Below, one piece after another: positions 11,030 through 12,278 of a DNA stretch of 64,000 nt. The notes below the pieces were generated by a model that was given only the letters and a program-made list of their open reading frames with translations, did no database searches and was not told the origin of the DNA. Position 1 is the stretch's first letter. Every line of letters starts with the position of its first letter. This stretch comes from Blasia pusilla. Its lineage: Eukaryota. The position numbers and the translations under genes were made by a program. The stretch lies in assembly GCA_050084515.1 (NCBI GenBank), contig CM114271.1, positions 14,198,001 through 14,262,000 of the forward strand. The letters are read 5' to 3'.

Positions 11030-12278
11030 GACATGCCCATGAGGAGTTGGGACATTTCGGAGTAAAGCGTACTTACAGCTTACTCTAGGTTCAATATTGG
11101 TGGCGCGGCATGCATCTTTGGGTACAAAGCGGTTTGTGGCGGATGTATGGTATGTGACAGAGTGCGAGCATCCTTCAATGCTTCCACTCCCTTGATTACA
11201 TCCTTTGCCGATTATGGGTTTAGGTTATCGGTGGAGTTTAGACTTTGCGGGACCTTTGCCATTGATAGGGCGTCATCATAGGTACGTGTTGGTCATGGTG
11301 GAGCATTTCTCCAAGTGGATAGAGTTGGTGGCACTACCAGATAAGGCGAGCGAGGGAACAGCTTATGCATTTCTAGATCGTGTGCTTAGTCACTTCGGTG
11401 CACCGGTAGAGGTGTTGACTGACCAGGGTACCGAGTTCATGGGAGAGTTTTAGGCCTTGTGTGATCATGCGCTGATAGATCACCGCACCACGTCCAAAGA
11501 TCATCCTGAAGCGTATGGGTTGGCGGAGAGAGTGGTACAGACGGTGAAGAGAGGATTGCGCAAGTATGGCTTGCAGCGGGGACAGTTGAGGGATTGGGAC
11601 CTACAGTTGCCATGGTTGGCTATGGGTCATCGCTTTAGTCGGCAGGCATCCTTGGCGTCATTTTCACCATAATTTTTGCTCTTTGGGAGAGAGCCAGATT
11701 TACCTGCAGCAATTTGACGTGACATGGCGAAGGTGTTAGATCTTGATGATCCAGATGTGTGGGTACAAGCATGTTCTCAGAGGGCAGAAGTTTTTCGTAG
11801 AGTTATGCCTATGGCCTTTGAGAACTTAGCTATTGCCCAGCATAGAGATACATTGAGGTACGCGACCATTCGTGGAGGAGGTTATCGTCCAGGGATTAGG
11901 AGGTTTCATCCTAGAGATTACGTGTATTTACCGCAGGCGGCACCCACGACGCTAGATGTCACTGCAGGGCGCACGATCCTACGTGTGCGCGAGGTATTAC
12001 CGACCGGAGTCCTCATGTTGGAGGGACGGGATGGTATGGTTTGGAAGGATCATGTGCGTAATTGTGCGCCATGTCATATTCCGAACGTAGATGGGACGGT
12101 GGATCCGAGCTTGGCACTGGTACCTGCAGGCTTGAGGTGTATGTTGTGCGGATCTACGAGGGGTGCAGCCACCATGTTGGTATGTGATGGTTGTTCTCGA
12201 GGGTGGTATATGTCATATCTGACCCCCCCTCTTGATGTGGTTCCCACGGGACGATGGATGTGTCCGAGATGTGTATAG
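11030..12278 (+). pseudogene. E1 DDE integrase with C-terminal PHD finger
   Basis: HEELGHFG...CxxC zinc-binding domain; LDFAGPL / LTDQGTEF / GLAER catalytic D-D-E; terminal CMLC...[11 protein letters not shown](H)MS(C)[18 protein letters not shown] matches the C4HC3 PHD pattern (~12138-12275). Confidence 0.92.

Follow-up and report, generated by a model that had tools for sequence, protein, structure and literature searches.

The 64,000-nucleotide stretch of DNA analysed here, hereafter the window, comes from Blasia pusilla (GenBank assembly GCA_050084515.1, contig CM114271.1, positions 14,198,001 to 14,262,000 of the forward strand; positions below count from its first letter) and is a nest of related retroelements that encode both a DNMT3-like C5 cytosine methyltransferase and, at the end of the integrase, a PHD finger. 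The finger that concerns us lies at 12138–12272 in the element E1, which occupies 3802–12494 on the plus strand (8.7 kb), has the termini TGTCAC...ACGACA, lacks a long terminal repeat (LTR) and is frame-broken throughout. E1 opens with a 5' terminal repeat, here called A (3802–4286, +), that is 90–91% identical to copies at 56845–56356 (-) and 59529–60001 (+). The methyltransferase follows at 7934–8898 (+), located by tblastn to the related proteins P0024, P0053 and P0082 and with its motifs still visible, and an in-frame TAG followed by CAA CCA (9157–9159, +) stands between its open reading frame (ORF) and that of the reverse transcriptase (RT). The RT itself (9429–9932, +) is recognized by tblastn and by Pfam RVT_1 (66.5 bits in the ORF 9417–9893), and the RNase H region (10048–11013, +) by Pfam RT_RNaseH (109.9 bits); the integrase, with H2C2 finger and core (10834–11717, +), is assigned by similarity only, through tblastn to P0053, P0082 and P0012. 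From integrase to finger a single frame (11211–12275) keeps 70% identity to P0012 in tblastn. Between the integrase core and the finger lies a C-terminal tail (11718–12137, +) for which translation, alignment and a model of the intact relative L018 indicate a long helix and a small SH3/Tudor-like barrel, with the conserved motifs IAQHRDTLRYA and CAPCH. The element closes with a 3' terminal repeat, B, of which the portion recognisably common to other copies spans 12456–12494 (+) and ends ...GCGCACGACA. The flanks of E1 read GCCCCC and GCCCTC, a possible 6-bp target duplication.

Fingers were scored with Pfam PF00628, whose gathering score is 24 bits, and all four copies in the window exceed it, with E-values from 3e-7 to 6e-12. 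The E1 tail ORF (11718–12278, +) yields a 186-residue translation in which Pfam places the PHD at residues 141–185; measured from first to last ligand codon, as for each copy, the E1 finger covers 12138–12272 (+; 30.7 bits, E 3e-7), with the stop at 12276–12278. The remaining three lie on the minus strand, in E3 at 17453–17587 (39.2 bits), in E5 at 48744–48878 (38.4 bits with its stop read as X) and in E6, the best preserved, at 51975–52109 (45.9 bits). A tblastn search with the E1 tail recovers the same four as full-length matches, 11718–12275 (+), 18007–17453 (-), 49298–48744 (-) and 52529–51978 (-), together with a fifth, 14138–13953 (-), that extends only to residue 62 and so does not reach the finger. 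At about 38985–39040 (+) the final ~16 codons of another finger survive in heavily decayed form.

The first-pass annotation of this DNA had described C4HC3 fingers ending the ORF in E1, E3, E5 and E6. A PHD-type finger is indeed present at all four sites, and in all four the reading frame ends one or two codons past the last ligand position, but an intact C4HC3 set is found in none: one or two of the eight canonical Cys4-His-Cys3 ligands are missing from each copy. Read codon by codon, E1 has lost ligands 5 (His to Tyr) and 6 (Cys to Tyr), E3 has lost ligand 7 (Cys to Phe), E5 has a TAA stop for the Cys of ligand 2, and E6, whose peptide had been quoted correctly up to MCPK, carries Tyr for the Cys of ligand 8. 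Because ligands are missing in all four copies and yet are kept across the family, the window copies are decayed PHD fingers and C4HC3 is the ancestral state. The elements that carry them are dead, with no full set of zinc ligands in any of the four fingers and with stops and frameshifts in every copy.

The family-wide state of the finger was established from three collections. Of 810 candidates in a database search with the E6 tail, 89 proteins scored E ≤ 0.001; the nearest relatives with a species name are from Marchantia polymorpha (72–77% identity), Calypogeia fissa and Sphagnum fallax, with Volvocales more distant; 72 of these 89 have the canonical C4HC3, and the other 17 end before or inside the finger or are decayed. 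A scan of metagenome contigs confirmed 376 candidates, and among the best 80 loci all eight ligands are kept in 51, incompletely covered in 14 and substituted, mostly Cys to Tyr, in 15. An exhaustive profile search found 4,234 representatives at E ≤ 1e-30, a count that is not specific to the finger because the profile includes the integrase core; in the best 150, which were analysed, the canonical finger stands at the same place in 137. All eight ligands are likewise invariant in an alignment of 21 tails whose rows were chosen to be free of stops and are thus not a random sample. The CAPCH motif is invariant in the same alignment, and its Cys-His pair, within C-A-P-C-H-L-P at the end of the barrel some 20 residues before the finger, could form a further metal site. 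Among the intact relatives L018, L019 and L020 the finger (45 codons) has a dN/dS of 0.04–0.12, where dS is 1.3–1.6 for the two pairs involving L018 and 0.15 for L019–L020; six pairs in a second clade give 0.21–0.51, values whose dN is raised in part by post-insertion decay. In the intact relatives the finger is thus under purifying selection. No Klebsormidium sequence appears among the relatives from the tail and methyltransferase searches.

The arrangement from which the window copies have decayed can be read in those relatives. In L018, ORF1 (976–5082, 1369 amino acids) contains a DNA_methylase match above the Pfam cut-off (51.1 bits) along with aspartyl-protease matches that are weak and below their cut-offs (22.4 and 19.5 bits), and ORF2 (5086–8226, 1047 amino acids) contains RVT_1, RNase H, Integrase_H2C2, rve and PHD (40.6 bits); the two are in the same frame, with a single TAG (5083–5085) between them. 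The layout of the intact family is gag, protease and DNMT3-like methyltransferase, then UAG, then RT, RNase H, integrase, helix, barrel and PHD. Following the stop, L018 has CAG TTA and L020 (stop at 4661–4663) has CAA TCA; TAG CAA CCA is found at three places in the window, in E1 (9157–9159), in E3 (20558–20556, -) and in a fragment (58311–58309, -). Six close loci (L004, L011, L012, L015, L031 and L035) have TAG CAA CCC, and L025 (7434–7436) has TAA CAA CCC. In the second clade no stop occurs at the corresponding place within 70 codons upstream. The consensus for efficient readthrough of the tobacco mosaic virus stop in plant cells is given in passages of PMC3159437 as UAG-CAR-YYA, and the contexts in the window, L018 and L020 fit it, with the seven close loci carrying CCC as the second codon. 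It had been proposed that chromatin reader and methyltransferase are part of one polyprotein. They would share one through stop-codon readthrough, but otherwise the product in the window's clade is split by the in-frame UAG, with the protease encoded upstream; because that UAG separates the two ORFs, methyltransferase and finger come to lie in one polyprotein only upon readthrough. The methyltransferase portion would consequently be translated more often than the portion carrying integrase and PHD.

In the window, the motifs of the methyltransferase occur in normal order, namely I (DLFGGISTG), IV (PCQ), ENV, LLDAARVGSRAHRPRLWWTN, EPxADExERAMGF and MDLNxLTW, and this order of motifs I, IV, VI, VIII, IX and X marks a non-rearranged C5 methyltransferase. 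The first-pass annotation placed the enzyme in the same elements as the finger, which tblastn matches bear out for E1, E3 (21792–20739, -) and E6 (55985–55195, -); further fragments lie at 28873–27883 and 58869–58615 (both -, tblastn). In both E1 and E3 the Gln codon of PCQ has become a stop, and E1 also has a frameshift near 8600, with FGG, PC(Q to stop), ENV and RAHRPRLWWTN still readable. Among solved structures, the P0024 and L018 domains are closest to DNMT3B, 3C and 3A (E 1e-6 and 8e-8; the matched entries include 4u7p and 4u7t), which rank ahead of the bacterial M.HaeIII and M.HhaI and of plant DRM. All 21 aligned relatives keep the catalytic Cys and the ENV motif without change, along with many other positions, and the named relatives include six Marchantia polymorpha proteins, Calypogeia fissa and Closterium sp.

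The annotation had also suggested looking for co-occurrence of finger and methyltransferase across related elements in other genomes, and such co-occurrence is nearly complete wherever the sequence reaches far enough. Twenty of the 80 metagenome loci are informative, in that an RT precedes the tail and the sequence extends a further 1.6 kb or more upstream, and in 19 of them a methyltransferase comes before the RT. The lone exception, L011, is a 5'-truncated copy, since its match to the closely related L004 does not begin until about position 7410, just upstream of the start of the RT ORF. With a hidden Markov model built from four methyltransferase domains, the domain is detected in 23 of 92 database proteins, most of the others being too short to reach the region, and in 74 of the 150 best representatives. 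When these representatives are classed by length, which leaves out 37 of the 150 without an anchor motif, it is present in 32 of the 35 that have at least 900 residues before the tail. The three others are P0017, which is of the ORF2 type, P0139, a double-integrase chimera, and P0244, a full RT-RNase H-integrase-PHD protein in which no methyltransferase is detectable. Searching in the opposite direction with the methyltransferase only (P0024 residues 1–330, word-index search), all four matches also carry the finger.

Two domain orders account for these pairings. The order protease-DNMT-RT-RNase H-integrase-PHD occurs in the window, L018, P0024, Marchantia and P0136 of Closterium, and the order RT-RNase H-DNMT-integrase-PHD in P0049, P0053, P0058, P0064, P0073, P0082, P0091 and most of the best representatives, with a weak form of it in P0057 and P0080 of Volvocales. 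The finger is at the end of the integrase in both. Because it stays there while the methyltransferase changes place, its fixed partner is the integrase and not the methyltransferase. The pairing of PHD and DNMT in the family is real and conserved, and the two have long been co-inherited. We considered whether natural DNMT-PHD fusion genes exist, with L001, L008, L009, L065 and the Marchantia protein P0006 as candidates, and rejected them: the first four are internal-deletion derivatives in which the methyltransferase has come to lie beside the tail (8939–10555 in L001), all decayed and, like L001, frame-broken, and P0006, although annotated as a gene, is without the catalytic middle. Two proteins of the second order, P0082 (residues 1558–1881) and P0053 (1217–1574), continue past the finger with a tail of 320–450 residues bearing DPWAG(S/T)G, a motif typical of S-adenosylmethionine-dependent methyltransferases; Pfam finds no family in the tail of either, and Atlas gives weak leads for that of P0082 (0.86–0.87) to bacterial and phage clusters, a minority with MTS or N6_Mtase. 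This tail may be a second methyltransferase, as in the elements known as DAM-LTRs and EpiLTRs but with a PHD in place of their chromodomain.

The structural context of the finger was examined on an AlphaFold2 model of the intact L018 tail, which shows a long helix, a small five-stranded barrel (~60–123) and the finger (~136–187, pLDDT about 80–86). In this predicted structure the finger has the interleaved two-zinc fold, with 45–57 residues superposed on the fingers of DPF2, BHC80, ATXR5 and BAZ2A/B. Foldseek returned 54 matches for the tail at E ≤ 0.001, the top ones being the Tudor-PHD cassettes of PHF1, MTF2 and UHRF1, with a high root-mean-square deviation (rmsd) over the two domains; single fingers superposed at an rmsd of 0.6–1.4 Å were those of DPF2, DPF3, BHC80, BAZ2A/B, ATXR5, UHRF1 and MOZ. 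Individual matches include BHC80 (2puy; TM 0.81, rmsd 1.3 over 57), the ATXR5 PHD with H3 (5vab; rmsd 0.9 over 47) and the BAZ2A PHD with unmodified H3K4 (4q6f; TM 0.79–0.81). VIA-align likewise relates the finger to the ATXR5 PHD with H3 (Z 8.1) and the ORC1b PHD with unmodified H3 (Z 7.4), and the barrel to the PHF19 Tudor (Z 8.7) and the foamy-virus integrase C-terminal domain (Z 6.5). The position, after integrase core and a small SH3/Tudor-like barrel, is thus the one at which chromoviruses carry a chromodomain, as had been claimed, and Pfam scans of the tails in the window and in relatives gave no match to the chromodomain family.

At the level of sequence, the best 60 of 101 solved chains matched by the E6 finger include CHD4 PHD2, PHF12, KDM5B PHD1 (E 1e-13), Lid, KDM5A PHD1 and KAT6A, and further DPF3, PHF21A, ATXR5, AIRE, BAZ2A/B and UHRF1; no ADD-bearing chain is among these 60. 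Most of the best solved matches are binders of the H3 tail with unmethylated K4, as entry titles from the structural comparisons also indicate. PHD fingers with a methyl-lysine cage have a Trp two residues before the ligand His. In this family the residues before the His read G-W-H (G-F-H in E6), so that Gly occupies that position. By its closest solved relatives and its absent cage Trp, the finger most likely falls in the PHD subclass that reads the H3 tail unmethylated at K4. The general expectation that it is an H3-tail reader agrees with its nearest solved relatives by sequence, by Foldseek and by VIA-align, which are such readers.

Beyond the finger, the ends of the elements have an organization of their own. 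The 3' end of E6 (51014–51786, -) consists of split direct repeats, B1 (51786–51662), A2 between, and B2 (51141–51017), with B1 and B2 91% alike, and E5 has the same B1-A2-B2 structure at 47779–48557 (-). Over the two elements B1 and B2 measure 125–128 nt and are 88–91% alike, the B1-A2-B2 block being placed after the stop codon, and at the junction of B1 and A2 in E6 the sequence ...ACGACA AT TGTCAT... mimics joined ends. A 5' A repeat with leader of the E5/E6 subfamily (31779–32797, -) is preceded by unrelated flank, opens with TGTCAT and shares 85% identity with the A2 of E6. Plain LTRs were tried for E1 and rejected, local alignment of its 5' 1.8 kb with its 3' 0.4 kb giving only a 38-column match at chance level, and the 5' region of E6 resembles its own 3' A2 block in short stretches only. 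Because of this want of a 5'/3' match in E1 and the unlikeness of the E6 5' region to A2, the LTR model was dropped in favour of split direct repeats. Among the relatives, the full pattern A1 ... B1-A2-B2 is seen in L012 and L048 and parts of it in L025 and others; the family thus combines split direct repeats (A ... B-A-B), TG...CA ends and no LTRs with a DDE integrase. E1, with a 5' A and a single 3' B, may have lost A2 and one B through recombination between B repeats.

The integrase of E6 (H2C2 and core, 52516–53232, -; Integrase_H2C2 56.9 bits, rve 48.3 bits) lies directly 5' of its tail ORF. E5 and E6 form a 3.2-kb tandem duplication (47779–51016 and 51014–54272, 84% identical), and E5, cut inside the RT so that it starts at 51016, abuts the 3' terminus of E6. 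E2 (13953–16691, -) is cut at both ends: it opens with the initial codons of the RT ORF and stops short of the finger, and its truncated 5' start at 16691 abuts the 3' terminus of E3. The fragment 38985–39729 (+), to which the remnant finger noted above belongs, consists of the last ~16 finger codons, the 3' region, a B repeat (39334–39360) and the start of an A repeat. From RT to PHD the copies in the window are 69–87% identical to one another, and among 799 changes private to a single copy there are 327 G:C to A:T transitions and 176 A:T to G:C. The GC skew of the coding strand is +0.21 to +0.26 in the window copies, +0.11 to +0.13 in intact relatives and about -0.08 to -0.02 in the non-element part of the window. 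A presumed host gene is a WD40 gene (43887–45221, -) of two exon-like ORFs with strong WD40-repeat matches, located 0.6 kb from a solo 5' repeat (45832–46511) and 2.5 kb from the end of E5.

Taken together, these observations lead us to regard 12138–12272 as the decayed integrase PHD of a dead Ty3/gypsy element of the Gypsy-DNMT3 kind, in which the finger served as a chromatin tether and the methyltransferase was made separately, a reading we hold to be probable though well short of assured. The finger would dock the integrase, and hence the complex of cDNA and integrase, on nucleosomes, most likely through the N-terminal tail of H3 unmethylated at K4, so that new copies would land away from active promoters; in this it would play the role that the chromodomain plays in chromoviruses. 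The methyltransferase would be produced from the upstream and more abundantly translated part; either on its own or within Gag-protease, it would act on the DNA of the element itself.

Several points weigh against the tethering model. Histone binding by the finger is putative, drawn from its resemblance to known readers. The model of the L018 tail is of middling overall confidence (mean predicted local distance difference test, pLDDT, 72.5; predicted template modelling score, pTM, 0.33), and the barrel has Z scores of the size that common small folds give. The loop that joins ligands 2 and 3 reads GSARGAAT in the window's clade, without acidic residues, whereas it is acidic elsewhere (GSGNDEDR in KDM5B PHD1; PDDE and DDAD in more distant relatives), and because these acidic residues are missing the exact mark read may differ. 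The insertion context, in the one window, includes nested and tandem copies and yet also a WD40 gene 0.6–2.5 kb from pieces of elements. As to the enzyme, the only published test of the activity of a Gypsy-DNMT3 methyltransferase, done in yeast, was inconclusive according to the passages of PMC5890265 that describe it.

The alternative that survives best is a direct coupling of reader and writer, in which the finger guides the DNMT3-like enzyme as well as the integrase and the new copy is methylated where H3K4 is unmethylated. Whether in trans or within a DNMT-integrase-PHD protein, this would copy the pairing of ADD and methyltransferase in animal DNMT3, whose ADD domain reads the unmodified H3 tail. 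The finger probably belongs to the same functional class, the co-occurrence is nearly complete (the 19 of 20 loci, the 32 of 35 long representatives and all four methyltransferase-only matches), the pair survives the change of domain order, and the second order places methyltransferase, integrase and finger side by side within a single ORF. In the window's clade, however, a stop codon, protease, RT, RNase H and integrase come between the two domains; whichever the order, the finger stays with the integrase and it is the methyltransferase that shifts; P0244, a full-length relative, has RT, RNase H, integrase and finger with no detectable methyltransferase; and co-inheritance in a clade does not demonstrate functional coupling. 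With a leaky stop codon and a protease separating the domains, direct coupling is only a conjecture, and we think it unlikely as the mechanism. The same doubt attaches to its strongest form, for which we would give only a modest chance: that finger and DNMT3-like domain are an obligate, long co-inherited reader-writer pair in a lineage of integrase-bearing retroelements of green algae and bryophytes, methylating new copies at H3K4-unmethylated nucleosomes. If this were true, a transposon would have rebuilt, for its own concealment or restraint, the ADD-methyltransferase logic of animal DNMT3, the finger finding the nucleosomes and the methyltransferase being made in Gag-like amounts before the leaky stop.

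A slightly less probable alternative than coupling is that the finger reads another target, such as H3K9 methylation, H3K14 acylation or a non-histone host protein, and either steers the element to a different compartment or serves nuclear import or particle assembly instead of targeting. The entry titles of close solved relatives include DPF3 and MOZ with H3K14 acyl and CHD4 PHD2 and Ehd3 with H3K4me1, and the missing acidic loop residues in the window's clade and the invariant CAPCH motif before the finger would suit such a shift; yet the close solved matches among the best 60 of 101 by sequence are all H3-tail binders or chromatin proteins, and the position after the integrase barrel is that of the targeting chromodomain of chromoviruses, in the relevant passages of PMC6673714 citing Gao et al. 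2008. Finally, that the finger lies outside the integrase, as cysteine-rich sequence arisen by chance or as an exon from a neighbouring host gene, is so improbable that we consider it refuted, since nothing was found to favour it beyond the lack of an intact C4HC3 in the four window copies, and those copies are paralogous, in frame with the integrase tail and stopped at the same place, match Pfam at E 3e-7 to 6e-12 and have counterparts at the same position in 137 of 150 representatives, under purifying selection.

The family is not new in kind. Its described features match those of Gypsy-DNMT3 elements, represented by KnitGypsy-Dnmt3 of Klebsormidium nitens, whose methyltransferase is reported in passages of de Mendoza et al. 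2018 (PMC5890265) to be under purifying selection and whose repeats are said in the legend of Fig. 4c there to be "the same as that of a DIRS retrotransposon", combined with Gypsy domain content. Shared are the order RT-RNase H-integrase, a non-rearranged DNMT3-like domain within the element, DIRS-like split direct repeats and a green streptophyte lineage, the comparison being one of described features, by which the assignment is probable. In contrast, those passages ascribe the acquisition to the Klebsormidium nitens lineage, whereas relatives are found here in Marchantia, Calypogeia, Sphagnum and Closterium. The term PHD has no occurrence in the main text and three supplementary files of PMC5890265, figures aside, and the account of KnitGypsy-Dnmt3 in its available passages mentions neither an in-frame UAG before the RT nor the second domain order. 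The same group uses the wording "streptophytes (Gypsy-DNMT3)" in part of a preprint (bioRxiv 10.64898/2026.05.21.726589), and passages of its earlier PMC6673714 state that PHD fingers capable of reading histone tails, in analogy to chromodomains, are encoded by many retrotransposons. The likeness to chromoviruses (Gao et al. 2008, as cited in PMC6673714) is in the small chromatin reader that follows the integrase C-terminal barrel and in its presumed role, tethering to histone tails for the choice of site; the difference is that the reader here is a PHD finger instead of a chromodomain, and the mark expected to be read is a different one.

Other known systems share one half of the pairing or a variant of it. 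The finger is shared with green-lineage Gypsy LTR elements of Chlamydomonas that have a PHD in pol; REM1, described by Perez-Alegre et al. in 2005, is reportedly a Gypsy element of Chlamydomonas with a PHD finger. Passages of PMC8557442 call the PHD a common accessory domain of C. reinhardtii transposons, and Gypsy-7a_cRei carries one (PMC9940879), differing, by description, in that the legend there lists no methyltransferase. Animal DNMT3A and 3B resemble the family in joining a DNMT3-type catalytic domain with a zinc finger of what would be the same unmodified-H3 class, here combined at the level of the element; they differ in that here the domains lie at opposite coding ends with a stop between, the finger, by its best 60 of 101 solved matches, resembling the KDM5/BHC80/ATXR5 type rather than an ADD. 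EpiLTRs and DAM-LTRs, as presented in parts of bioRxiv 10.64898/2026.05.21.726589, are LTR-type retroelements that likewise have a DNMT and a chromatin reader, but the reader is a chromodomain, an adenine methyltransferase is present, and the DNMT is DNMT4-related and lies at the 3' end of pol, in contrast to the PHD finger and the DNMT3-like domain before the RT in the window's family. In the literature searched on Gypsy and Marchantia, with figures and bioRxiv supplements aside, neither the pairing of PHD and DNMT nor these elements in liverworts is described, and a search of the literature for Chlamyvir with PHD gave unrelated genome papers only.

The window alone is ordinary, consisting of dead copies of a family already in public databases. 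Its significance is in distribution and in association. A 2019 opinion article (PMC6338049, in the passage concerned) held transposons encoding DNA methylases to be absent from land plants "such as tracheophytes", and the founding paper, in the passages cited above (PMC5890265), treated the acquisition of the DNMT as specific to Klebsormidium; DNMT-carrying Gypsy elements are now placed in a genome of bryophyte type, as well as in public records from liverworts, moss and Closterium. That the finger travels with the methyltransferase in nearly every informative relative yields a testable model in which chromatin-guided insertion and DNA methylation are combined in the same retroelement family.

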